From an uncultured Gammaproteobacteria bacterium (GTDB lineage: Bacteria; Patescibacteriota; Patescibacteriia; UBA1558; GWA2-36-10), in contig CAZWYP010000006.1 in NCBI GenBank assembly GCA_964638415.1, forward strand, positions 2,244-66,243: a stretch of DNA of 64,000 nucleotides. The letters run 5' to 3'. Made by a program: the position numbers and the translations under genes. Positions 4,928-43,123 of this stretch are shown one piece after another. Position 1 is the stretch's first letter. Each line of letters starts with the position of its first letter. The notes under the pieces are model-generated. The model searched no databases. It saw only the letters and a program-made list of their open reading frames with translations, and was not told the DNA's origin.

Positions 4928-4956
4928 TTGACAAAATAATTAAAATATGATAGATT
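4928..4956 (+). promoter_or_regulatory. putative sigma70-type promoter (TTGACA-17-TAGATT)
   Basis: Perfect -35 TTGACA at 4928-4933. 17-nt spacer. TAGATT at 4951-4956. Lies upstream of the 5016 start. Confidence 0.35.
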
Positions 4957-5015
4957 ATATTGCTTTGCGTCCTTTGTCAACTTGTCTTGTTTCACCAAGA
5001 AAAGGGAGTCTTTCC

Positions 5016-6629
5016 ATGTTTCGTTTCATTTTCGTGGTTTTGTTTGCCTGCCTGGCAACCATATCCATATCTTCCGCTGAAGTCATTGACAACAACGTTG
5101 TCTGCCAATTGCCCAACTCGTCCTCCTTGGACGATACTTTGGATCAGCAAGTCATGGCCTTTGACGTATTAGTCGGCGACTACGACGATCAGGACAGTAC
5201 AGTTTATGTGGCTTGGACATCATTTCAAGGCGACAACGACCAAACTGTCGTTGCGGCTTACCGAAATGGTGAGGAACTTTGGCGCACAATAGTACCTTTC
5301 CCCGGCGATGCTTATCCCATCGCCGTCAAAATGGTTGGAGGAAGGGTTATTGTTTGTAGCCAAACCGTTTCATCAAACCCATTCGAGACACAACTGTCAA
5401 TCGCGGCAATTGCCAATTTCAATGGTGGCTTTCTGTATTACGGACACGTTACGCCAAGTTATTCCGCTAGTTTGCCATGGCAATTCGAAATGTACACTGC
5501 TCCAAATGATTTATTAATAGACACAGCCGTTGTGATCTGGCATGTGCAAGGAAGCGGATCTTCGTATTTCCAACGCGTCAATGTAGCTGAAAATCCACCC
5601 ACTCTTTTTGACGGCGATGGAACTGCTTTCCCGAATGGCTGTTATGTCAACTCCGACGCCGCCTGGCAAGGTGGGCGCTGGTGGTTTTCCGACTGCGGTA
5701 CAACTATGTACTCAATTAGTCCTACCGAGGGTTTAGTCGGAATAGACACTACTTCTTCCAACTACTGGACTATGTTCAGTGGCAGCGAAGATTCTCTGTG
5801 GGGAGTAACCTTTAATAACGGAATGGTCCTAGAGCACCTGTCAACTTCCGGTGAAGTAAACCCGATAGACACCCGTGTCTTACTCAGTTTACACACAGAT
5901 CCCGATTGGTCATTTCGCATGTCCCACGAACGATTTATTACCGGTGGACGATTCTTGACGACGAGCATGATTGAAGACACGCCATGGCCGTGGTATCACG
6001 TTTCCGTAGGTTGGTATGATTTGGAAACTGGTGGAAATTGGGGCTTTAGTCTACCAACTTACAATCCCCCCATCTCACATGCCGGCGCCATTTCGGACCA
6101 CATGATCGGCCTGATTACAGCTGGCCAAACCACTGTTCGTTTCGACGCTTGGGATATTTTAGACAGCGCTTATACCATCAGCGTTGATTCCATCGGTCCG
6201 CACCAAGATGGTTGGGGCGGCTGGTCAAGAATTTTCCCAGACGGTCACGGTGGGGCTGAGCTATTCTGGACTACTGCCGAAGGCATGGGGCCGGGCACGT
6301 TATATCATTATCACGTCACAAACGTGCAATCGACAAACAACCCAATTCAGACGAACATTCCTATAGACATGTCGCTCGGCCAGAACTACCCCAACCCGTT
6401 CAATCCGACGACGACCATTCCGTTCAACCTGCATCGCGCCGGTCCGGTAACACTGAAAGTATTCAATATTACCGGGCAGTTGGTTGCTACCGTGCTGAAC
6501 AACCAGGTGATGTCGGCCGGACAGCAGCAAGTTAATTTTGACGGCTCGCAGCTGTCCAGCGGCGTTTACGTCTATACCATTTCCAGCGGCAACTTCCAAG
6601 CTGCTCAGAAGATGGTCCTGATGAAATAA
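5016..6629 (+). CDS. secreted protein with T9SS-type (Por) C-terminal sorting domain
   Basis: Start reassigned to the internal Met (MFRFIFVVLFACLATISISSA signal peptide) preceded by a strong SD AAGGGAG 7 nt upstream. C-terminus NYPNPFNPTTTIPF...VYVYTI matches the TIGR04183/Por_Secre_tail motif. Coding GC is visibly higher than that of flanking genes. Confidence 0.7.
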   Translation: MFRFIFVVLFACLATISISSAEVIDNNVVCQLPNSSSLDDTLDQQVMAFDVLVGDYDDQDSTVYVAWTSFQGDNDQTVVAAYRNGEELWRTIVPFPGDAYPIAVKMVGGRVIVCSQTVSSNPFETQLSIAAIANFNGGFLYYGHVTPSYSASLPWQFEMYTAPNDLLIDTAVVIWHVQGSGSSYFQRVNVAENPPTLFDGDGTAFPNGCYVNSDAAWQGGRWWFSDCGTTMYSISPTEGLVGIDTTSSNYWTMFSGSEDSLWGVTFNNGMVLEHLSTSGEVNPIDTRVLLSLHTDPDWSFRMSHERFITGGRFLTTSMIEDTPWPWYHVSVGWYDLETGGNWGFSLPTYNPPISHAGAISDHMIGLITAGQTTVRFDAWDILDSAYTISVDSIGPHQDGWGGWSRIFPDGHGGAELFWTTAEGMGPGTLYHYHVTNVQSTNNPIQTNIPIDMSLGQNYPNPFNPTTTIPFNLHRAGPVTLKVFNITGQLVATVLNNQVMSAGQQQVNFDGSQLSSGVYVYTISSGNFQAAQKMVLMK

Positions 6630-23074: not shown

Positions 23075-24126
23075 AAGCTCATATCAATAATAGCTACAAT
23101 TAAGCCAATCACCGCGGTGACACCGGCAATTACCCAGAAACGCATGACAATTTTAGGCTCTGACCAACCTTTGGCTTCAAAATGATGATGAATAGGCGCC
23201 GATAAAAATACTTTGCGCTTGCGAATCTTCTTGGAGAGGATTTGAATGATTACCGAACCGGATTCTATTAACAGAATAAAGCCAATAATTGGCAAAAGCA
23301 AAGGATAACCCGTCAACACTGCCACAATGCCTAAAGCTACTCCTAAAGACATAGCGCCGGTATCGCCCATAAAGAATCTGGCGGGATTAATATTAAACCA
23401 CAAGAAAGAAAGCAAGGCTCCGATGATCACCCCGCAGAAAGCCGCTAAATTATAATCTCCCTGGACAAAAGCAATGGTGCCGTAAGCACCAAAAGCCGCT
23501 AAAACTATACCGCCGGCTAAACCGTCTAAACCGTCTGTTTCATTGACAGAAAAAGCAGTAGCGACAATTACAAAAATAAAGAAAGGAATAAACCAGTAGC
23601 CTAATTCAAATACTCCCACAAACGGTATCCTAACTACATCCCATTCCAATTTAAAATAAAACCACCAAGCACCGAAAACAGCAATTAAAGCGTACATCAG
23701 CAAGCGGTGCTTAACTGTTAAGCCGCCTCCCTTACCACCGCCCTGTCGGCGAACATTAAACCAGTCATCCAGTAAGCCCACTAAAGCCGAGGCAATCAAG
23801 GCGCCTAAAGGCAGATAAGTCTCCGACCTAGTCAAAAAATTCCAGCTGGCTAAAAAAGAATCTGGCCATACCTTGTAAATCCAGAAAAAAACCAAGGCTA
23901 ATAATAAAGTGGTAAACCAAATCAATACTCCACCCATAGTCGGTGTACCGGATTTAACCTGATGGATCTTGGAAAAAATAGGCGTCAATCCGTCATTACG
24001 GACACTCTTGCCCAAACGATGCTTATATAAAAAATGCGTCCATAACGGAGTAAGCAGGGTGGCTAGTAAAAAAGCAATAGCTGTTAGCGCCAAAATTTTA
24101 ATAATAACAAAATTTTCGGTCATCAT
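23068..24126 (-). CDS. mraY: phospho-N-acetylmuramoyl-pentapeptide transferase
   Basis: 352 aa. Polytopic. Conserved Asp-rich loops (DDWFNVRR, NETDGLDGLA). Confidence 0.9.
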   Translation of the reverse strand: MMTENFVIIKILALTAIAFLLATLLTPLWTHFLYKHRLGKSVRNDGLTPIFSKIHQVKSGTPTMGGVLIWFTTLLLALVFFWIYKVWPDSFLASWNFLTRSETYLPLGALIASALVGLLDDWFNVRRQGGGKGGGLTVKHRLLMYALIAVFGAWWFYFKLEWDVVRIPFVGVFELGYWFIPFFIFVIVATAFSVNETDGLDGLAGGIVLAAFGAYGTIAFVQGDYNLAAFCGVIIGALLSFLWFNINPARFFMGDTGAMSLGVALGIVAVLTGYPLLLPIIGFILLIESGSVIIQILSKKIRKRKVFLSAPIHHHFEAKGWSEPKIVMRFWVIAGVTAVIGLIVAIIDMSLW

Positions 24127-24482
24127 AAATTGTAGCTAATAATATTATAAAGATAGATTAAAACCATAAAATTAATTACCGCTACGGCAGTAATGATAAA
24201 ATGGCTCCAAATAGTCTGCTTATTCCATAACCAATAAGCTAAAGCTAAATCCAATATGCTAATCACTAAGCTAATAGCTGGTAATAAATACAGCCAATAC
24301 CACGGTCCAATCGCGTCAAAACCAAAGTAAATATTATAGTGTAAAATAGATAAATCGCTTCTGACTATAGGCCGAAAAAGTAAAAGCAGCCAGCCGGCTA
24401 AAATAAATAAAACCGCCGCATTAATCAACCAAAAATTCAAACGGTCCTTGTAAAAAACCTTAATGTTCTTTATCAACAGCAT
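24123..24482 (-). CDS. hypothetical small membrane protein
   Basis: 119 aa with 3-4 predicted TM helices. 4-nt overlap with mraY. Confidence 0.45.
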   Translation of the reverse strand: MLLIKNIKVFYKDRLNFWLINAAVLFILAGWLLLLFRPIVRSDLSILHYNIYFGFDAIGPWYWLYLLPAISLVISILDLALAYWLWNKQTIWSHFIITAVAVINFMVLIYLYNIISYNL

Positions 24483-24576
24483 ATTTTCTCATATTTTAAC
24501 ATAAAAGATTAAAAAAATCTACTTTAATAATTAGCTTAAATATAGTATAATAAAAGCAAAATTAACCCATAAATCT

Positions 24577-25446
24577 ATGGCAGTAAAAAAGGCTATCAAG
24601 GCCAAAAAAGCCACTACTTCTAAAACCCAAGCTCTCCAGCTAGATAAATTGCTAGCAGCAGCACTTAAGGTAAAAGCTACCAGCATTCATTTAGAGCGCC
24701 ATAGCGAACAAGCCAAGGTTAGATACCGAGTAATGAATGAATTAAAATCGGGAGAGAAGATTTCTTTGGATTCCTTTCTGGCTTTAAGCCAAAAGCTTAA
24801 AGCTTTGGCTAATGTTGATCCCACCGCTAATACTCCCCAGGAAGGACGCTTTAGGGCTCGCTCCGGAGAGCAAGAATTACAGCTAGGTACTGCTTTCTGG
24901 CCAATGTATGAAGGAGAAAAGATTATTATTAAAATTCTGGACGATAAATCAGCTAAACTATCTACTTTATTGCTGACTGAGGAAGATTTCCATAAAATAT
25001 CTTCTGCGCTGCAAGATAAATCGGGCTTAATCCTACTGACAGAAATGAAATTAACAGAAAAAAACCGCCTGCTATATGCCCTACTTAATGAGCTTAATCG
25101 GGAAGCCTTGGATATCTTCACTCTAGAAGACTTTATCGAATACCCCCTGCCGGGTATTCATCAGCAGCAATTGGAAAACTTTGAAGATAATAAATTAAGT
25201 AATACTTTAGCTAAACTGCTTAGGCATGAACCGGATGTGGTGATGATTTCCAAGATTACTGGTCCGGAAACTGCCAAGCAAATAGTCAATGCTGCCGCTC
25301 ATAATATTGTTCTTACCTATTTACCAGGCCGAAACTTAGAAGAAAGCATGCATTTTCTCAAAGCCTGGGGAATTGATGATTATATTCTAGAATCTGTCTT
25401 AAAATCAATTATTACCCAAGCAGATAATAAATTTAAAATAATCTAA
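24577..25446 (+). CDS. degenerate PilB/GspE/PilT-like secretion ATPase homologue (pseudo-ATPase)
   Basis: 289 aa. It aligns to the N2 domain and ATPase core of T2SS/T4P ATPases: PQEGRF..GEKIIIKIL vs PQDGRf..GEkvvlRiL, the Asp box TLEDFIEY, and LRHEPDVVM. The Walker A is replaced (GLILLTEMKLTEKN vs [14 protein letters not shown]). The Walker B Glu is lost (MISKITGPETA vs [11 protein letters not shown]). The His box is degenerate and the C-terminal subdomain is absent. Confidence 0.7.
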   Translation: MAVKKAIKAKKATTSKTQALQLDKLLAAALKVKATSIHLERHSEQAKVRYRVMNELKSGEKISLDSFLALSQKLKALANVDPTANTPQEGRFRARSGEQELQLGTAFWPMYEGEKIIIKILDDKSAKLSTLLLTEEDFHKISSALQDKSGLILLTEMKLTEKNRLLYALLNELNREALDIFTLEDFIEYPLPGIHQQQLENFEDNKLSNTLAKLLRHEPDVVMISKITGPETAKQIVNAAAHNIVLTYLPGRNLEESMHFLKAWGIDDYILESVLKSIITQADNKFKII

Positions 25447-26102: not shown

Positions 26103-27734
26103 TTATTCTTTAAATTCTATTTTAATTAATTTAAACTCTTCATTTATCTCAACTGTTTGCTGAAAAGTCAAACCACTCTCCTCTGCTTCCTGCTTAACTT
26201 CTAATAATTTATCTGCTGGCTGCGAAGTATAAAAATAAATCGGAGTCTTGTCTTTTATCTTAGCAATGCGTGGCCAAAGAGGCAAATCTCCCTGCGGCAC
26301 TACTACCCGGTAATACGGAAAAAATATCTTGTCGCTCCGTTCGGTAATAATAACCGAATGCTTAGGCGCGTAATTCTGCACCCTGACAAACTGCCGGTAA
26401 TAACTCTGTAAATTTGCAGTATTAGCAACTAGCCCATCATAAGGAGAATAATATGCTAATCTCACGGAAAAAATTCCTAGAATAATTACCAATATCAATG
26501 GCCAACTGACTGCTAAATATTTCTGTTTTAAATTGCTGAGGCCTAAAATAGCTTTAGCAACAAATGGCAAAATTAAAATATAAATCGGTAGAAAATAACG
26601 CACATAAGAAATACTAATGGTATTATATTGCTTAACCAAAGGATCAGCTAAATCCCAATTGGCGTAATAGATTAAAATAATTATACTGACTAAACTAGTA
26701 GCTATAAAATACTTAAACCAGAGAGATTGCCTGTTAAATACTTGGTCTTTCAAATACCACCAAGATAATAAAGCTAAGAGATAATACGGCCACATTAATT
26801 CTACTAAATAATGCCAGGTGTTAGATAATAACAATCTGGTCTGCCAACCAAAAGGCAAAATAATTACCTGCAGATAACCAATTAATCCTCGATGTCCTGA
26901 AGCAAACTCTGTCGGCAGGCTATTATTCTGCAGATTAAGATAGCCAAACAGCCACCATGAGCCATAAACTGCTTTATTTAAAGATAGACTGGCTAAAGCG
27001 GTAAAAATAAATAAGAGTGCAGCAATAATAATCTGCTTTTTAGTAATTAACTTATAATTAAAATACCAGAGCAGCAATAATAGAACTGCTACCCATAAAA
27101 TTTCCGTGGGCCTGACTGCTAAAGCGCAAAGTATTAGCCAACTGCCAATAATAAACCACAGATTGCTTTTCTTTTCTGCAAATAAAAACAATCCTAATAA
27201 GCCAAAGCTTAAGAGGAAAATAAATAGAATTACGGGCAGCATGGCCTCATTGGTAAAAAACAGCCAAGGCGCTAAGGGTAATAATAATAAAGCGCATAAT
27301 AAGCTTAAATCCAGATCATGCCAGATCCGGTAAAACAGCTGGTAGATAATAAAAACAGTAGCGACTGCCAGTATGGGAGTCAAGAATAAGATGCTTAGTG
27401 GCCCCAATAATTTAAAAGCTAAGCCAAAAATAAGCAGTCCTGGTAAAAAAGTCATGGGCACCAGCCAACCGTTAATCACATTAATACTGCGGGTATGTAA
27501 TAGATTATCTGTCCAGAAATTCAAATACTCTAAAGAGAAAAGGGAATTAAGGCGGCTAAATGACTCGGCAAAGAAATAATTAGCATTAGCATCAGGCCAA
27601 TTAAAAATCATCTGCTTGGTTGCTAGCCATTGCGGCAACCAGGTAGACCAAATGGTATAGGAATAAAGCCAGAAGAAAATCAGACTCAAGCCAATAACTA
27701 GAATACTATAAGTAGTTTTTTTATTGATCTGCAT
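26103..27734 (-). CDS. GT-C fold membrane glycosyltransferase (ArnT/PMT-like, GT39/GT83)
   Basis: 543 aa with at least 11 TM and a C-terminal extracytoplasmic domain. First-loop motif PDANANYFFAESF resembles the ArnT/PMT DE..YAEIA catalytic loop. Confidence 0.5.
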   Translation of the reverse strand: MQINKKTTYSILVIGLSLIFFWLYSYTIWSTWLPQWLATKQMIFNWPDANANYFFAESFSRLNSLFSLEYLNFWTDNLLHTRSINVINGWLVPMTFLPGLLIFGLAFKLLGPLSILFLTPILAVATVFIIYQLFYRIWHDLDLSLLCALLLLPLAPWLFFTNEAMLPVILFIFLLSFGLLGLFLFAEKKSNLWFIIGSWLILCALAVRPTEILWVAVLLLLLWYFNYKLITKKQIIIAALLFIFTALASLSLNKAVYGSWWLFGYLNLQNNSLPTEFASGHRGLIGYLQVIILPFGWQTRLLLSNTWHYLVELMWPYYLLALLSWWYLKDQVFNRQSLWFKYFIATSLVSIIILIYYANWDLADPLVKQYNTISISYVRYFLPIYILILPFVAKAILGLSNLKQKYLAVSWPLILVIILGIFSVRLAYYSPYDGLVANTANLQSYYRQFVRVQNYAPKHSVIITERSDKIFFPYYRVVVPQGDLPLWPRIAKIKDKTPIYFYTSQPADKLLEVKQEAEESGLTFQQTVEINEEFKLIKIEFKE

Positions 27735-38500: not shown

Positions 38501-39616
38501 TTAATCTTGAATGCAGCGAACAGAGCCTGCATAAAAATCTCCAGAAATAGCACCTCGATAACGACCTACCGTAGCTAAAGCACTGCTAAAAGTCCGATAC
38601 CAAGCACTACTTAAGCCATATTTAGTAGAAGACCAAATCCAGCCTGTACCGTCTTGATACAAAAACATATATTCATAATTATCCCAAATTCCGCCTAAAA
38701 CATCATTAAATCCAGAGGAACCTCCTGCTTTTAATTTAGTGCCTTCATTGGTTCCTCGCCAACCAGTAGTAGTCGTGTCAATCGGAAAATCAGTAGTACA
38801 GCTGCCAGAAGTACAGACTGCTCTTTCTAAAGTAGTAAATTCATCATGAGTTGGAATATGCCAACCGGTTGGACAAATACCTTGAGCGCCATTAACTTCC
38901 GAGCCACACATCGCTTGTGGCCAGATGTAAATACCACCATCTGCTGTACAATTAGCTTCCGAATCATTATAGCAATACTTTTTAATAGCCGCTGCCGAAA
39001 CGCAACTGTAACCACCAGTACCCCCAGCTACCCTGGTGCCGACATTAAGATTCTGTGCAAACCAGCACTGCGTGCCAATCTGCACAGTTGCATAATTAAC
39101 CCCCTCGTAACTAACCGTATCACCACAAGCAAATCCACCACCACCTTCTTCTCCGGCACTAGCTGTATATTCATAACAATGTTCAACTACAAAACCGGCA
39201 TCGCTTACTCTGGTAATATAATAACCCGTATCATCACCCGTAGCATCAGGATCAATTGGCAATTCACCAATGTACGGCTCCATTAAAGAAGCTAGATCAA
39301 CTCTGGCAATATCCTGACCCAAAGTGGTGCAGGTAGCATTACCGGCAGTGGAACCCCCAGCAGAAACCAGCATATAAGGAGTATTAAGAGTTAAAGCGGC
39401 AATAGCTGCTGGCACTGTGCCATTATTATCTGCTACTAAGGTAGTTAAGCATTTTTCTAACTCATCACAATTCTTATCTCGTAAGGAGTTTTGTGCTTCG
39501 CCAAAACGTCGAGCTGGATCAACTGCAACAAAAACTACCGCCGCCAATACCCCAATAACGGCAATTACTAAAATGATTTCTATTAAAGTAAACCCTTTCT
39601 CTTTACTTAAAAACAT
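38501..39616 (-). CDS. type IV pilin-like protein with C-terminal Fib_succ_major (FISUMP) domain
   Basis: 371 aa. Class III signal plus N-methylation site KG/FTLIEIILVIAVIGVLAAV. C-terminal QCWFAQNLN...CPTGWHIPTHDEF...WSSTKYG...GSVRCIQD matches the TIGR02145 pattern. Confidence 0.7.
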   Translation of the reverse strand: MFLSKEKGFTLIEIILVIAVIGVLAAVVFVAVDPARRFGEAQNSLRDKNCDELEKCLTTLVADNNGTVPAAIAALTLNTPYMLVSAGGSTAGNATCTTLGQDIARVDLASLMEPYIGELPIDPDATGDDTGYYITRVSDAGFVVEHCYEYTASAGEEGGGGFACGDTVSYEGVNYATVQIGTQCWFAQNLNVGTRVAGGTGGYSCVSAAAIKKYCYNDSEANCTADGGIYIWPQAMCGSEVNGAQGICPTGWHIPTHDEFTTLERAVCTSGSCTTDFPIDTTTTGWRGTNEGTKLKAGGSSGFNDVLGGIWDNYEYMFLYQDGTGWIWSSTKYGLSSAWYRTFSSALATVGRYRGAISGDFYAGSVRCIQD

Positions 39617-39790: not shown

Positions 39791-40225
39791 ATGACTAGTT
39801 TAGGCCAATTTACCTGCCTTAATCCCCACTGTCCTGATCACCAAAAACCAGAACAAGGAAACATAACTTTATACACCTTTTACAGCCGGAAGCGAGTCCG
39901 CTTGTTACTCTGCCGTACTTGCGGCAAAACCTTCAGTGAACTGAAAGGGACGCCATTCTGGGGCACTAGACTGGATTGGAATACAATCGTTATCATTTAC
40001 CGTGGACTATTGTCTGGTGGGACCATTCGCGGCACAGCTAGAGACTACAATTTCTCCAAAAATACCATCAAGCGCTACCTAGATCTGCTTAATGACAATT
40101 TTCCTGCTGTGGAGAAATTACTAATTGACCAGCAGGTGATCTTACCTGGACAGCAGCAAATGCTCCTAGATCTAAAAAAACGCTTTCCTAGAACTGTTAA
40201 ATTAGCAGGCAAAAAAGCTCACTAG
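39791..40225 (+). mobile_element. IS1 InsA-like / transposase N-terminal zinc-ribbon + HTH protein (orphan, no DDE domain)
   Basis: 144 aa. C-x4-C...C-x2-C zinc ribbon (CLNPHCPD...CRTCGKTF) followed by an HTH (GTIRGTARDYNFSKNTIKRYL), as in IS1 InsA and IS1595 N-termini. Higher GC and a strong SD, unlike native genes. No downstream transposase catalytic ORF. Confidence 0.5.
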
Positions 40226-40242
40226 AACAGTGCTAATGGAAA

Positions 40243-40284
40243 TAAAAAACCCTGAACCAATTTGGACAGGGTTTTCTTCTTTTA
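40243..40284. terminator. bidirectional rho-independent terminator
   Basis: Hairpin aaccctg...cagggtt flanked by an A-run and ttttcttctttt. Shared by the plus-strand IS-like gene and the minus-strand Cys-rich ORF. Confidence 0.55.
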
Positions 40285-40285
40285 T

Positions 40286-40423
40286 TTAAGAGCAGCAGTC
40301 GCATCCATCGGCACAATTACAGCCTTCGCCGGAACAATTGCAGTCATTTTTACCGCAATTGCAACCCATTGAATCGCTGCAAGTACATGGATCATTGCCG
40401 CAATTTGGACAAACATCTCCCAT
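40286..40423 (-). CDS. metallothionein-like cysteine-rich small protein (45 aa)
   Basis: Not in the ORF track because it is under 60 aa. Minus-strand ATG to TAA gives MGDVCPNCGNDPCTCSDSMGCNCGKNDCNCSGEGCNCADGCDCCS. It has 13 Cys in 45 residues, arranged as CxC/CC clusters with no aromatic residues. Terminator immediately downstream. Confidence 0.5.
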   Translation of the reverse strand: MGDVCPNCGNDPCTCSDSMGCNCGKNDCNCSGEGCNCADGCDCCS

Positions 40424-40454
40424 GATTTGCAAATTAATAATTAACTATTTGTTA

Positions 40455-41789
40455 TTATAGACTATTAATAATTTCCCGCAAGGGCTGCATTAAACTGGAA
40501 GAGAATTCTCTATCAGTAATAGCCGATGAGGCCACAATAGCGTTATGTGGTTTATGCTTATCTCTCTGATATTTCCTGGGATAATGCGCTTCAATAGCAC
40601 CATTAGGTAAAACAAAAATATGATTGAGTTTCAATTCTTCAATTAACTGATCTGCATTATTGCTCTTTGGTCTAATCTTTAAATAATTTAAAATATTATT
40701 CAGCTGCCAACCAACTGCATCCCTATCCATGACAATTAAAAATCTGATGTTGAAAATCTTGAGTAATTCAATAAACAGCATCATATTCCCTTTGCCGTGG
40801 GTTTGCACCACCTTTATCTCCTGATCACCGCCATAATAACGATCAATTAAGCCGCGTAATAGGATTCTATCCGATACTCCTTCCACCAAAACTACGGTAT
40901 CGGCAAAAAACATTTCCAAATTATCCGCATCTAATTCCTGGATTAAGCGCTGGCCAAAATAATGACGTTTGGTCAAAGACAAACCAAAAGCTTCCGTACT
41001 CTTTTCGCTTTTTACCACTCTAATTACCTGCGGCAAGGTAATAGCTTTAATAAATAATGGAGAATGGGTAGTGAAGAATATCTGAGCACCACTGCTATTC
41101 TGCATCGCCCACAATAATTTCTTGATTAAAATAGGATGCAAATGAGTTTCTGGTTCGTCAATAATCACCAATTGGTATTCTGGATGGAAGATATAAAGCA
41201 AGATGGTAAAAACCCGGCGGAAGCCGGAACCTAGACGATCTAAGGTGACTTTCCTATCTGCTTCCTGCAGACCAGTTGTCTCATAATTAATATCTAGGGC
41301 ATTCTTGCCAGTAACTATCTTGGGAAAATGTTTAGCTAGATTCTGCTGAAACTCAGCCAAACTCTCCGGATATTTTCGCAGACTCTGCCAATCTTTCTTA
41401 ATCTGATCTAAATTATGAAAATCATTAGAAGTAAGGTGCTTAACTGTCTTTGCTAAATAATTAGCTAATTTTCCTTGGTAAGGCAATACTTTATTGCCAA
41501 AAATTAACTGCCGTTGCTTATTTTTTAACTGTAATAGGCCTTGGCTTAAAGGTAAATTAAATTGTTTCTGCTCTTCTTTGCTAAAATTCAACGCAATTTC
41601 AATATCTGCCTTGGGATAATCTAAAGCCTCACTGGTATCTTTCTTATTAAAAGCATAATCTATAGCATAAAGAATATTACTTTTGCCACAGTTGTTCTGA
41701 CCGATCAAAATACTAATCGGTAAACCAGTCAGTAAAATAGGCTTCTTGATGCTTTTGTAATAATTTATTTTTAGCTTGGCAATGCGCAT
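40455..41789 (-). CDS. OLD-family ATP-dependent endonuclease (AAA_21-type ATPase + TOPRIM)
   Basis: 444 aa. Walker A LIGQNNCGKSNILYAI (P2 Old/GajA-like GxNxxGKSN). Walker B LVIIDEPETHLHP. H-loop FFTTHSP. TOPRIM motifs VVLVEGVSDRILL and LIVMDRDA. Confidence 0.65.
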   Translation of the reverse strand: MRIAKLKINYYKSIKKPILLTGLPISILIGQNNCGKSNILYAIDYAFNKKDTSEALDYPKADIEIALNFSKEEQKQFNLPLSQGLLQLKNKQRQLIFGNKVLPYQGKLANYLAKTVKHLTSNDFHNLDQIKKDWQSLRKYPESLAEFQQNLAKHFPKIVTGKNALDINYETTGLQEADRKVTLDRLGSGFRRVFTILLYIFHPEYQLVIIDEPETHLHPILIKKLLWAMQNSSGAQIFFTTHSPLFIKAITLPQVIRVVKSEKSTEAFGLSLTKRHYFGQRLIQELDADNLEMFFADTVVLVEGVSDRILLRGLIDRYYGGDQEIKVVQTHGKGNMMLFIELLKIFNIRFLIVMDRDAVGWQLNNILNYLKIRPKSNNADQLIEELKLNHIFVLPNGAIEAHYPRKYQRDKHKPHNAIVASSAITDREFSSSLMQPLREIINSL

Positions 41790-43123
41790 TATAGCAATTG
41801 GATATCCTCTATTTCCCTGACCTTGTTATGCAAAACAATATTTTCAATGTGATAAGTTCCCATTTTCGGAGCATCTAAATATCCTTGCATAGCAGCTTCT
41901 GCCAGCCAGCCGGAATTCAGCCAGTCAAACAACCACTCATTGACATATTTGACATCCGGGGCATCAATGCCCGCTCCCAGAGCCAATAACCAATCCCGGT
42001 TATAAAACTCCTGAGAACCTACCGGTGGAGTCATTAAAATAGGAATGCCCAAGCCGCTGTAAAAAGTAAGTTCCGAGGGCTTGGTCCACAGAATATCCGT
42101 TGCTCTTAAGGCTTTGTTGAATAATTTAAAATAGTTCTGCTTGTCTTCAGAAAAGATAATATCAATATTTCTACAATCATTAAGCCGGCAGTCTTTAATG
42201 GCCTTTTGGAAAAAAACATAAACATCATTTCTGGCACCCGCTACTAAATTTAAATGAATTTGCCCAGTCTTAATTTGTCTATGCAATAAATGGGCAATTT
42301 CTGCGCCAATCTCTCTTTGCGCGCCAGCTCCACCCACCGCAAAAGTAATAGTCAATGGACGATTAGGCTTTTTAATGTTGCGAATCGGGCAAAGATAGTC
42401 TTCTAATAATTTTGAGTACTTATGCCGGTAAATTCCTTTGGGATCCAGCATAGCCAAGCGATCTTTTAAATCGCTTTTTAAAATCTTCTGATCCAAGCCT
42501 CCAATGTTCTCCTTAGGCAAAGGAAAGCCAGTGACATAAATATTCTGGGCTTTCACGCCGTACAATAAAAGGCGTTCTCTCACCCGCTTATTGGGAGCTA
42601 AATAGATAATTCTGCTTCTTTTTGGCTCCATTGGCGCCCAGGCTCTGGCGACATCGGCATCGGTAACTACTAGATAAATCTTTTCCGGATAATTATTGTA
42701 TTCTGCTACATAGGCCGGAACAAAAAAAGTAGTCACCATAGGCAATGGTTTTTTGCGCAAAATGTCTATTAAATTCTTGCCCATGCCCCGCTTAATCTTG
42801 CGGTAAAAGAATTTAAGCTGGGAATAAGGCTTAGATAAATCGCGCCGAGGATAAAACGGCTCAATCCTCTGGAAATAGTCCATTAAACGAAAAACCCATG
42901 GGCCGATGATCGGCACATCCTTAAAACGTGAAATCAATTCGTACAAAGTCCGGCTTTCATTCCATTCATACTGCTCGCGGCGAGAAATTCCCTGGTAGAA
43001 ATTAGCATTGATTACCCCATTGGGGCTTGAGCCAGCTAAGGGATGAGCGGCTCGCTGATGGCCATAGCCCATATCCACGGCAACGACATACATTTTATTT
43101 TGTTTTGGTGTTGGCTTGTCCAT
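41789..43123 (-). CDS. GT-B glycosyltransferase, MGDG-synthase/UgtP-like (GT28)
   Basis: 444 aa. N-terminal MYVVAVDMGYGHQRAA (cf. UgtP ILTANYGNGHVQVAK). Mid-region FVPAYVAEY...YLVVTDADVARAW...NIYVTGFPL parallels UgtP. C-terminal GT28 motif GIPILMTPPVGSQEFYNRDWLLALGAG. Its stop overlaps the OLD gene's start (TAATG). Confidence 0.65.
   Translation of the reverse strand: MDKPTPKQNKMYVVAVDMGYGHQRAAHPLAGSSPNGVINANFYQGISRREQYEWNESRTLYELISRFKDVPIIGPWVFRLMDYFQRIEPFYPRRDLSKPYSQLKFFYRKIKRGMGKNLIDILRKKPLPMVTTFFVPAYVAEYNNYPEKIYLVVTDADVARAWAPMEPKRSRIIYLAPNKRVRERLLLYGVKAQNIYVTGFPLPKENIGGLDQKILKSDLKDRLAMLDPKGIYRHKYSKLLEDYLCPIRNIKKPNRPLTITFAVGGAGAQREIGAEIAHLLHRQIKTGQIHLNLVAGARNDVYVFFQKAIKDCRLNDCRNIDIIFSEDKQNYFKLFNKALRATDILWTKPSELTFYSGLGIPILMTPPVGSQEFYNRDWLLALGAGIDAPDVKYVNEWLFDWLNSGWLAEAAMQGYLDAPKMGTYHIENIVLHNKVREIEDIQLL

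Follow-up and report, generated by a model that had tools for sequence, protein, structure and literature searches.

The gene examined here lies on the plus strand of a 64-kb window, the whole stretch of DNA that was analysed, and encodes a 289-aa protein that an earlier note on this DNA had read as a dead and truncated relative of the T2SS/T4P assembly ATPases. A CPR origin of the window, as the note had supposed, is supported by its DnaK matches, which are 75–82% identical to Parcubacteria/Patescibacteria. The genes and features at the locus are as follows.

24123..24482, minus strand: tm119, a 119-aa membrane protein with three TM segments, first gene of the divergent mraY-murD-ftsW-murG-murC-murB operon.
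24483..24576, no strand assigned: divergent intergenic region of 94 bp shared with the tm119-mraY operon (7-locus alignment).
24524..24551, plus strand: promoter-like site TTAATA-16-TATAAT, 25 nt 5′ of the ATG (consensus scan, 10 of 12 matches).
24577..25446, plus strand: pseudo-ATPase open reading frame, complete, 289 aa plus stop, with an ATG start.
24577..24636, plus strand: Lys/Ser-rich N-terminal tail, aa 1–20, at the place of the missing N1 domain (model and alignments).
24637..24951, plus strand: N2 domain, aa 21–125 (PilB/GspE and family alignments, secondary structure of the model).
25039..25068, plus strand: Walker A remnant TEMKLTEKNR, aa 155–164 (alignments to PilB/GspE and family).
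25120..25140, plus strand: Asp-box remnant TLEDFIE, aa 182–188 (family alignment).
25231..25266, plus strand: Walker B remnant PDVVMISKITGP, aa 219–230 (alignments to PilB/GspE and family).
25300..25326, plus strand: His-box remnant HNIVLTYLP, aa 242–250 (family alignment).
25399..25443, plus strand: C-terminal β-hairpin, aa 275–289 (model strands 275–282 and 285–288, alignments).

Homology of the protein to the T2SS/T4P assembly ATPases over the N2 domain and the RecA-like core, as claimed in the earlier note, is borne out. The Pfam alignment proposed there as a check gave a highly significant match to T2SSE (PF00437; E 1.2e-41, 143.1 bits against a gathering cut-off of 24.9), covering profile positions 11–275 of 370, rather than the lack of T2SSE similarity that would have told against the claim. 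The top match in the PDB is Geobacter PilB (E 2.5e-28), where residues 19–280 of the query pair with chain residues 204–470 of 588. Solved PilB/GspE structures match at E 1e-27 to 1e-28, whereas the matches to PilT structures are weak (E 1e-4 to 1e-6, about 95 residues). The NCBIfam models place the protein in the same branch, with 112–148 bits for GspE, PilB and ComGA and 43 for PilT. Nevertheless, every equivalog or subfamily cut-off is missed by a wide margin, the bit scores over the cut-offs of the GspE, PilB, ComGA, TfpB and PilT equivalogs being 147.8/617, 134.9/630, 132.6/676, 111.9/300, 105.9/850 and 43.2/319. The protein is thus a T2SSE homologue, but by its Walker A, Walker B and His-box motifs, its domains and its equivalog scores it does not pass as a functional ATPase of the family.

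Only N2 and the RecA-like core remain of the PilB architecture. About 200 PilB residues on the N1 side have no counterpart, the alignment beginning at PilB chain residue 204, and a Pfam search of the 289-aa protein for T2SSE_N/MshEN (N1) found no match at E ≤ 10. N1 is the domain that binds GspL, PilM or c-di-GMP. In its place stands the N-terminal tail, which reads "LxSLIKSKSKSA" in relatives and is modelled as a low-confidence helix with pLDDT below 50 at residues 1–13. The N2 domain keeps the motifs SIHLE, RYR, PQEGRF and GEKIIIKIL. At the other end, PilB chain residues 471–588 are unmatched. The Zn-binding subdomain is missing, as had been noted, the C-terminal subdomain is absent too, and the chain stops where the tetracysteine CxxC starts in PilB/GspE. 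The AF2 monomer model (pLDDT 84.4) superposes on PilB; its best Foldseek match is PilB 5tsh_E, with TM 0.78, E 3.9e-26 and an rmsd of 3.2 Å over 270 columns.

Within this preserved fold, the key catalytic residues are, by alignment, gone from three of the four ATPase motifs. The reported replacement of the Walker A sequence GPTGSGKT by EMKLTEKN is real but needs one correction: the Walker lysine (Lys162) is kept, and what has been lost are the glycines and the Thr. Lys162 is invariant across the family and is immediately preceded by an acidic residue, Asn or Asp stands where the Mg-binding Ser/Thr would be, and the pattern GxxGxGK[ST] is matched by no family member. GK[ST] is kept in all other top T2SSE matches except one protein, P0010. 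In Walker B, GEIRD has become SKITG (context VVMISKITG), exactly as the note described; the catalytic Glu is Lys here and Gln, His or Asn in relatives, and a GP within the remnant is a new invariant of the family. The His box is likewise degenerate, TLHTN having become TYLPG (AHNIVLTYLPG compared with TGH-x-V-x-S-T-L-H-T). Neither of its histidines is conserved in the family, where Y-L-P forms a new invariant; the protein of the window has a His one residue ahead of the first His-box position, which is absent from relatives. The Asp box, T-x-E-D-P-x-E, retains invariant E184 and D185 while its Pro is replaced by Phe/Tyr.

Judged from the sequence and the model, the protein should be unable to hydrolyse ATP and probably does not bind it either. 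In the AF2 model the Walker A loop consists of three residues (156–158). Its helix begins at residue 159 and so precedes by three residues Lys162, which aligns with the Walker lysine of intact relatives. The P-loop helix in intact ATPases normally begins at GK(S/T). An acidic residue before the Walker lysine, together with a P-loop modelled as a 3-residue turn, would make ATP binding improbable. Counting against inactivity, the Walker lysine and the Asp-box acids are still invariant, and from these residues another proposal can be built, namely that the protein is a nucleotide-binding sensor or switch with an aberrant P-loop rather than a motor, comparable to the non-hydrolysing RecA-type ArlH/FlaH. 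Lys162, E184 and D185 would then be kept for nucleotide, as would the mostly retained arginines of N2 (RYR, PQEGR), and the segments of the old cleft are the most conserved, with column conservation of 0.75–0.76 in the Walker A remnant and Asp box (0.76 in the Asp box) and a family mean of 0.63. We consider such a sensor improbable. None of the P-loop glycines survives, the lysine follows directly on an acidic residue, the Mg-binding Ser/Thr has turned into Asn or Asp, the modelled loop has only three residues, the Walker B Glu has been lost along with the two histidines of the His box, and PQEGR is deleted in one sub-lineage. The conservation of the old cleft segments also fits a structural or interface role.

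The degenerate motifs are not peculiar to this genome. Orthologues were found in about 5–6 lineages, with 32–68% identity, lengths of 286–297 aa and colinear sequences, and family members come from at least 8 independent assemblies. The search of related genomes that had been recommended yielded the same motif losses and the same truncation point in all orthologues found, and marine and groundwater assemblies of independent origin carry identical substitutions. The family is restricted to one clade of Parcubacteria (CPR) and is very rare: a family search among 1.84 billion representatives gave 3 clusters, and 241 million metagenome records gave 7 loci, all Parcubacteria. Identity within the family falls to 32%, overlapping the 25–33% identity to intact PilB, so that pairwise identities alone are no proof of monophyly; the case for monophyly rests on the shared derived motifs, the truncation point and the genomic slot.

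Motif loss, truncation and a position outside any pilus operon are also what would be expected of a decaying remnant of an ordinary pilB, or of an assembly or annotation artefact, with no function. Two further observations lean the same way. One lineage (L033) is without the gene, and at long range the pseudo-ATPase is the fastest evolving among its neighbours (32–68% identity vs 56–74% for MurD). The close-range comparison speaks against decay. For a close pair of genomes, dN/dS of the pseudo-ATPase is 0.06 at a dS of 0.70, with 66 synonymous differences and 21 amino-acid differences, and the neighbours in the same comparison give 0.07 (MurD), 0.08 (FtsW), 0.12 (tm119) and 0.37 (pilin). For a more distant pair the pseudo-ATPase gives approximately 0.12–0.17. 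The gene is under strong purifying selection, which rules out a pseudogene. Its frame is intact and colinear in every lineage that carries it, over a divergence of up to 68%, and the sole "broken" copy (L023, a 136-aa call) is due to a 100-N scaffold gap. The recurrence of identical substitutions in independent assemblies argues equally against an artefact.

Sequencing error or a frameshift can be set aside as well, through the family-wide substitutions and the missing trace of a C-terminal piece. A tblastn search of the 64-kb window with intact PilB aligned residues 171–434 only, and the C-terminal PilB piece gave no HSP in any frame; an intact Walker A/B recoverable by frame correction, which the note had allowed for, is thus not found. 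The promoter is conserved too. Six of the 7 aligned loci carry the −10 element TATAGTATAAT; locus L003, with an insertion of ~65 nt, has TATTATACCAT at the aligned −10 position and TATAAT further downstream. Two conserved blocks of the intergenic region, TATTTTAACAT and AAAAAAATCTA, are read as back-to-back core promoters, with a putative assignment to the minus strand for the tm119 side. The idea of a decaying or artefactual pilB is effectively refuted. What lies at the locus is an expressed-looking and constrained gene for a PilB/GspE-type ATPase cut down to N2 and the RecA-like core. The view that it is a pseudo-enzyme kept by selection and not junk agrees with the family-wide motif loss, the dN/dS of 0.06 and the conserved −10, although the inactivity itself is deduced from sequence.

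The gene occupies the same slot in all orthologue loci, between the tm119-mraY-murD end of the cell-wall operon on one side and nifU on the other; nifU is convergent and starts 25 nt past the pseudo-ATPase stop. The dcw neighbours named in the earlier note are genuine, the gene adjoining the mraY-murD-ftsW-murG-murC-murB operon, and glycosyltransferase and sugar-nucleotide genes lie on the far side. Pilus genes are elsewhere. The note was right that the gene stands outside any pilus operon, no pilus machinery genes being present in the 64-kb window: active pilB, pilT, pilC/gspF, pilM and pilD were sought there and none was found, nor was any of them found within ±10 kb in at least 10 related loci. 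The neighbourhood therefore offers no link to pilus machinery. The pilin-like gene mentioned in the note is authentic (38501..39616; N_methyl E 7.6e-7), and relatives whose contigs extend there have a GFTL(V/I)ELL prepilin between ftsW and murG. The window has no such dcw-embedded prepilin, and for this reason the prepilin is rejected as an obligate partner.

This setting gives weight to a different proposal, in which the protein has been repurposed away from pili as an envelope or division accessory acting with the dcw/peptidoglycan operon or else with the envelope-glycan cluster downstream; a scaffold close to the membrane would be one such role. Its position is invariant, divergent from tm119-mraY across an intergenic region of ~90 bp with back-to-back conserved promoter blocks, and the glycosyltransferase/sugar-nucleotide genes flank it on the other side. 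tm119, which has no Pfam or PADLOC match, was recovered only from close relatives of the source organism: its word-seeded homology matches are all 113–119 aa, only Parcubacteria GW2011_GWA2_36_10 is named among their sources, and the contigs examined all show the same syntenic region. There is also a precedent in Myxococcus, where PilB signals to the production of exopolysaccharide (PMC5544727, as reported in PMC11656802). On the other hand, the region is syntenic over >15 kb among close relatives, so that adjacency to dcw reflects a lineage-wide gene order, is not independent evidence for division and weighs little. No domain or motif ties the protein to peptidoglycan or glycan enzymes. Lineage L033, whose MraY identity places it inside the clade, has cleanly lost the pseudo-ATPase while keeping tm119-mraY-murD and the glycan genes intact. 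Envelope synthesis does not need the pseudo-ATPase, given this deletion, and tm119, which L033 has without it, is excluded as an obligate partner. We regard the envelope or division role as rather unlikely. The loss in L033 also marks the pseudo-ATPase as dispensable and accessory. A component of a defence system was considered too and was rejected, no PADLOC match being obtained.

The reading that we prefer, with roughly even confidence, is that the protein is a PilB-derived pseudo-ATPase that binds other proteins and probably tunes type IV pilus-like machinery. Pseudo-enzymes commonly regulate or scaffold the pathways of their active relatives. If it does not hydrolyse ATP, it would work as a pseudo-enzyme and rely on inherited surfaces for protein-protein contacts, these being the packing surfaces of the N2 domain and core by which PilB-type subunits touch one another and their platform partners. 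Not all inherited interface elements are required, since the L017 lineage has a deletion of PQEGR in N2. Mechanistically, binding to the type IV pilus-like machinery of the cell is most likely: the pseudo-ATPase might enter or cap the ring of an active PilB/PilT-type ATPase, forming a non-catalytic subunit there, or might instead dock on the platform. As a brake, stator or adaptor it would then adjust the assembly of pili without powering it, and would be a non-essential accessory factor. Ring formation or docking on the platform might, however, depend on N1 and the C-terminal subdomain, both of which are missing. Because the lineage has type IV pilin-like proteins, its genome should encode, at another place, a pilus-type machine with an active ATPase. 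A bolder version holds that the family is the founding natural case of a non-catalytic T4P/T2SS-motor subunit (stator or brake), a dead protomer that would co-assemble with the active hexamer or cap it, as non-catalytic subunits of other ring ATPases do, or, with tm119 and the dcw prepilin, a coupler of pilus assembly and wall growth in the ultra-small CPR cells; we think this quite unlikely.

Comparison with known systems sharpens this picture. The protein resembles PilB, GspE (PulE) and ComGA in the fold of N2 and the RecA-like core (TM 0.78 to Geobacter PilB) and in keeping SIHLE, RYR, PQEGRF and the E-D of the Asp box, but it differs from them in the absence of N1, of the tetracysteine Zn subdomain and of the C-terminal subdomain, in the replacement of the Walker A glycines/Thr, the Walker B Glu and the His-box histidines, and in having no pilC, pilM or gspF adjoining it (±10 kb). 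In outline it is closer to PilT and PilU, which consist of an N-terminal PAS-like domain and a core without N1 or Zn subdomain in about 290–350 aa. Its sequence, however, sides with the PilB/GspE branch, the PilT model giving 43 bits where 319 are required. Both of these retraction ATPases are catalytically active, keep their Walker, Asp and His boxes intact and carry a C-terminal AIRNLIRE region that the pseudo-ATPase lacks.

Analogies of function can be drawn further afield. Archaeal ArlH (FlaH), a RecA/KaiC-like protein, partners the archaellum ATPase ArlI and is thought to associate with and modulate this hexameric T2SSE-family motor, not to power assembly. ArlH belongs to a KaiC-like family, keeps its Walker A, binds ATP and is encoded in the archaellum operon, whereas the pseudo-ATPase descends from the motor and lacks a P-loop; the analogy is functional only. 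Similarly, TadZ/CpaE of Tad pili has an ATPase fold with an atypical nucleotide site and serves as a localisation or assembly hub, not as a motor. It is a widespread protein of MinD/ParA-type fold encoded in the tad operon, from which the pseudo-ATPase differs in its T2SSE fold and its restriction to one clade. Closer in ancestry is P0010, a 440-aa protein of MAG GCA_964621675.1 with an eroded His box, GGLKHSERP at Walker A and LTDLP at Walker B. It is only 28% identical, adjoins recA, still has its CxxC Zn subdomain and C-terminal region, and falls outside the family; being independently degenerate, it indicates that motif loss recurs in the T2SSE superfamily. Proteins of ~1000 aa, the best non-family matches of the exhaustive profile search (220–290 bits), were considered as a fused pair of dead and live PilB and rejected. 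The three that were inspected have GPTGSGKTT and GEIRD unbroken in each module, so that their 220–290 bits are the sum of two domains, and the one locus looked up has an unrelated gene context.

PilB/GspE-type motors are described in the work consulted as homo-hexamers of identical active subunits, and their known regulators are unrelated proteins, namely PilZ, FimX, c-di-GMP and phage inhibitors (2024 review, PMC11656802). No T2SSE pseudo-ATPase was described in the literature searched, most subscription papers lying outside that search. The impact of the family is limited by its rarity (7 loci in 241 million records), by its occurrence in uncultivated organisms and by its being dispensable in one lineage. 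Its immediate value is that of a curated example, since family proteins are currently labelled as "PilB", "TadA" or "GspE" ATPases, and such labels mislead for proteins without the catalytic motifs. If it is a pseudo-subunit derived from the motor, it would represent a new type of regulator for the PilB/GspE machine, and, as a natural experiment, it would reveal what in the PilB fold matters beyond catalysis. The episymbiotic life of CPR bacteria is believed to depend on type IV pili (PMC11623550), and with such dependence lineage-specific modifiers of the pilus would bear on attachment to the host.

The reading frame at 24577..25446 (+) encodes a 289-aa protein, a predicted pseudo-ATPase, which by ancestry belongs to the T2SSE superfamily. 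Its Pfam T2SSE match (profile positions 11-275 of 370) has an E-value of 1.2e-41 and scores 143 bits where the cut-off is 24.9, and its best solved-structure match is Geobacter PilB (E 2.5e-28; query 19-280 versus chain 204-470 of 588), with Vibrio GspE also among the best. The top curated models, GspE, PilB and ComGA, score 148-112 bits, far under their equivalog cut-offs, and the PilT model only 43 bits. An AF2 model from 11 input sequences (mean pLDDT 84.4) fits PilB 5tsh_E at TM 0.78, with an rmsd of 3.2 Å across 270 columns. The earlier note had called the protein a catalytically dead, truncated PilB/GspE-type homologue, and judged by sequence, modelling and selection this pseudo-enzyme reading is essentially right. 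The alignments reproduce its replacements of GPTGSGKT by EMKLTEKN at the P-loop, with the refinement that the Walker lysine (K162) is kept, and of GEIRD by SKITG at Walker B. The His box is degenerate (TLHTN to TYLPG), as it had said, and the Asp box keeps its acids, as TLEDFIE. The chain stops where the CxxC Zn motif starts, so that the Zn-binding subdomain is missing as described; the truncation goes further, as the N1 domain is also absent, with a 20-residue Lys/Ser-rich tail in its place. Compared with PilB, GspE, ComGA and PilT ATPases, the protein departs in every tested motif save the Asp-box acids, and in domain content, equivalog scores and gene neighbourhood.

Sequencing error had been offered as a refutation, and it fails, since the substitutions are family-wide and an intact PilB used as tblastn query matches nothing in the window except this gene. 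All orthologues found carry the same substitutions, (E/Q/G)x(K/R)(L/P)x(E/D)K(N/D)x, then S/G-x-I-x-G-P, then Y-L-P, and the same truncation point; they are colinear and 286-297 aa long. Members are very scarce. Among 5.8 billion proteins, a word-seeded search returned six orthologues of the 288-aa class at 46-52% identity, followed by intact ATPases at ~30%; exhaustive HMMER over 1.84 billion representatives gave no more than three clusters of short degenerate proteins (P0004, P0016, P0030); 2 loci turned up in 185,579 scanned species genomes and 7 in 241 million metagenome records. The sources are marine (e.g. MAG SI048_bin106) and groundwater metagenomes, and the databases label the proteins 'PilB', 'TadA' or 'GspE' ATPases. 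The closest DnaK matches of the window are all Parcubacteria/Patescibacteria (75-82% identity), including Komeilibacteria and GW2011_GWA2_36_10. In one orthologue, P0003 (322 aa), the gene call begins with ~40 in-frame residues resembling thioredoxin reductase (MYDIIIIGSGPAGW…), probably the product of a chimeric contig or a mistaken start and no real fusion. Groundwater relatives L021, L024 and L025 have a 7-residue insertion, GSPRGVA, directly ahead of the first core strand, and a uracil-DNA glycosylase gene between murC and murB.

Full-text literature searches found no description of a T2SSE pseudo-ATPase, and the passages searched in a 2024 review on PilB cofactors name no inactive paralogue derived from the motor (PMC11656802). 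PilB and PilT of TM7x, a cultivated patescibacterium, were reported with well-conserved Walker boxes (PMC11623550). Among the best ~160 T2SSE matches, GK[ST] is kept in all non-family proteins except P0010 (440 aa; L020:1909-3231), which has GGLKHSERP at Walker A and LTDLP at Walker B and keeps the CxxC Zn subdomain. P0010 adjoins recA in an unrelated MAG and is independently degenerate; motif erosion therefore recurs in the superfamily. P0011 matches the Gracilibacteria ATPase P0009 throughout, at the same length, but reads Trp at many Gly positions (WTWSWKT for GTGSGKT); it apparently comes from a code-25 genome (UGA = Gly) to which the wrong translation table was applied, so that the database would hold a spuriously 'degenerate' Walker A. 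A tandem 'double PilB' family (P0015, P0017-P0029; ~980-1050 aa) was also seen. The three sequences inspected have two full N2+core+Zn modules, with Walker A and B intact in both; Pfam adds an MshEN domain in P0015. In the one context examined (L034:8001-11057) the gene is an orphan adjoining polA, tsaE and ruvB, with no pilC nearby.

Substitution rates were compared between close relatives L016 and L022 (pseudo-ATPases 93% identical) and the more distant L003 and L006, where dS is close to saturation.

Substitution rates of the pseudo-ATPase and neighbouring genes
Pseudo-ATPase, L016 vs L022: dN 0.039, dS 0.70, dN/dS 0.06
MraY, L016 vs L022: dN 0.029, dS 0.98, dN/dS 0.03
MurD, L016 vs L022: dN 0.069, dS 0.92, dN/dS 0.07
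FtsW, L016 vs L022: dN 0.053, dS 0.64, dN/dS 0.08
tm119, L016 vs L022: dN 0.066, dS 0.56, dN/dS 0.12
dcw-embedded pilin, L016 vs L022: dN 0.352, dS 0.95, dN/dS 0.37
Pseudo-ATPase, L003 vs L006: dN 0.20-0.22, dS 1.3-1.7, dN/dS 0.12-0.17

The pseudo-ATPase is clearly under constraint, despite being the fastest-evolving protein of its neighbourhood at long range (32-68% identity versus 56-74% for MurD). Located 25 nt ahead of its ATG is a promoter-like site (TTAATA-16-TATAAT), the −10 element of which, TATAGTATAAT, occurs in 6 of 7 aligned loci. The pseudo-ATPase is a constrained, motor-derived protein without catalytic motifs, and that it is a non-functional remnant is hardly credible. Locus L023 was considered as a broken copy and rejected, the apparent break being a 100-N scaffold gap.

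The old cleft segments are the best-conserved parts of the family (Walker A remnant 0.75 and Asp box 0.76, versus 0.63 overall), with K162, E184 and D185 invariant; this suggests that the cleft holds an internal salt-bridge network replacing the nucleotide, or a repurposed interface. In the AF2 model the strand ahead of the old P-loop stops at residue 155 and a helix starts at 159, three residues before Lys162; because just three residues separate them, the model predicts loss of the phosphate-binding loop. ATP would not be hydrolysed, and its binding would probably be lost too. A residual nucleotide sensor is improbable. The protein would instead work through inherited protein-protein surfaces.

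The gene occupies an identical slot in every locus carrying it. On one flank it diverges from tm119 (119 aa, three TM segments), the gene at the head of mraY-murD-ftsW-(prepilin)-murG-murC-murB, an operon; the opposite flank has convergent nifU, then HIT and a glycosyltransferase/sugar-nucleotide cluster. The dcw adjacency pointed out earlier is thus real, but synteny of the whole region extends >15 kb, and the adjacency is therefore clade-wide gene order with no independent functional signal. Locus L033 has the tm119 homologue P0290 in the order HIT-nifU-(38 bp)-tm119-mraY-murD (L033:5741-6360), with no T2SSE gene or remnant. Its MraY shares 82-86% identity with the MraY of most members, more than that of gene-bearing L017 does (73-78% to all the others), so L033 is nested in the clade and one clean loss is the simplest history. 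The pseudo-ATPase is therefore dispensable, and tm119, retained without it, is no obligate partner. L033 and the synteny both weigh against a role as envelope or division accessory factor, which is rather unlikely.

Several other features of the window were observed. A polytopic membrane protein (~520-550 aa; 26103-27734 (-)), without a Pfam match, is conserved in all related loci, flanked by HIT and a pair of GT4 glycosyltransferases; it could be a glycan polymerase or transferase specific to the lineage. A 560-aa protein at 4947-6629 (+) matches Por_Secre_tail (E 4.2e-12), a C-terminal sorting domain of type IX secretion. This was not to be expected in Patescibacteria, as T9SS is known as a trait of Bacteroidota/FCB. 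At 39791-43123, otherwise conserved sequence carries what may be a mobile or defence islet:
39791-40225, TnsD-like fragment
40455-41789, OLD-family nuclease with AAA_15/AAA_21 and TOPRIM
41789-43123, DUF6938 protein

The gene lies outside any pilus operon, as the earlier note held: pilB, pilT, pilC, pilM and pilD are all absent from the window. The lineage does use type IV pilin-like proteins. The pilin-like gene noticed at 38501 has an N_methyl domain. In relatives, every contig that extends to ftsW and murG has a type IV prepilin of 280-341 aa, with GFTL(V/I)ELL near its N-terminus, between these two genes:
38501..39616 (-), window, prepilin-like protein, 371 aa, N_methyl motif and N-terminal GFTLIEI
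L003:4835-5860 (-), dcw-embedded prepilin
L006:4912-5877 (-), dcw-embedded prepilin
L016:4903-5913 (-), dcw-embedded prepilin
L017:112-954 (-), dcw-embedded prepilin
L022:12012-12944 (+), dcw-embedded prepilin

The window protein resembles the embedded pilins in its N-terminal helix only and ends in a Fib_succ_major (Fibrobacter succinogenes major paralogous) domain (E 5.7e-24). The embedded prepilin evolves fast, as its dN/dS indicates, and it is uncommon for a pilin to share a transcript with genes of lipid II synthesis. The window lacks it, the ftsW stop overlapping the murG start (junction ~20521); that pilin is therefore no obligate partner of the pseudo-ATPase. There is about an even chance that the pseudo-ATPase is a non-catalytic partner or regulator of type IV pilus-like machinery, as ring subunit, cap or platform adaptor. 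L033 and the other lineages provide a natural presence/absence contrast for phylogenetic profiling.
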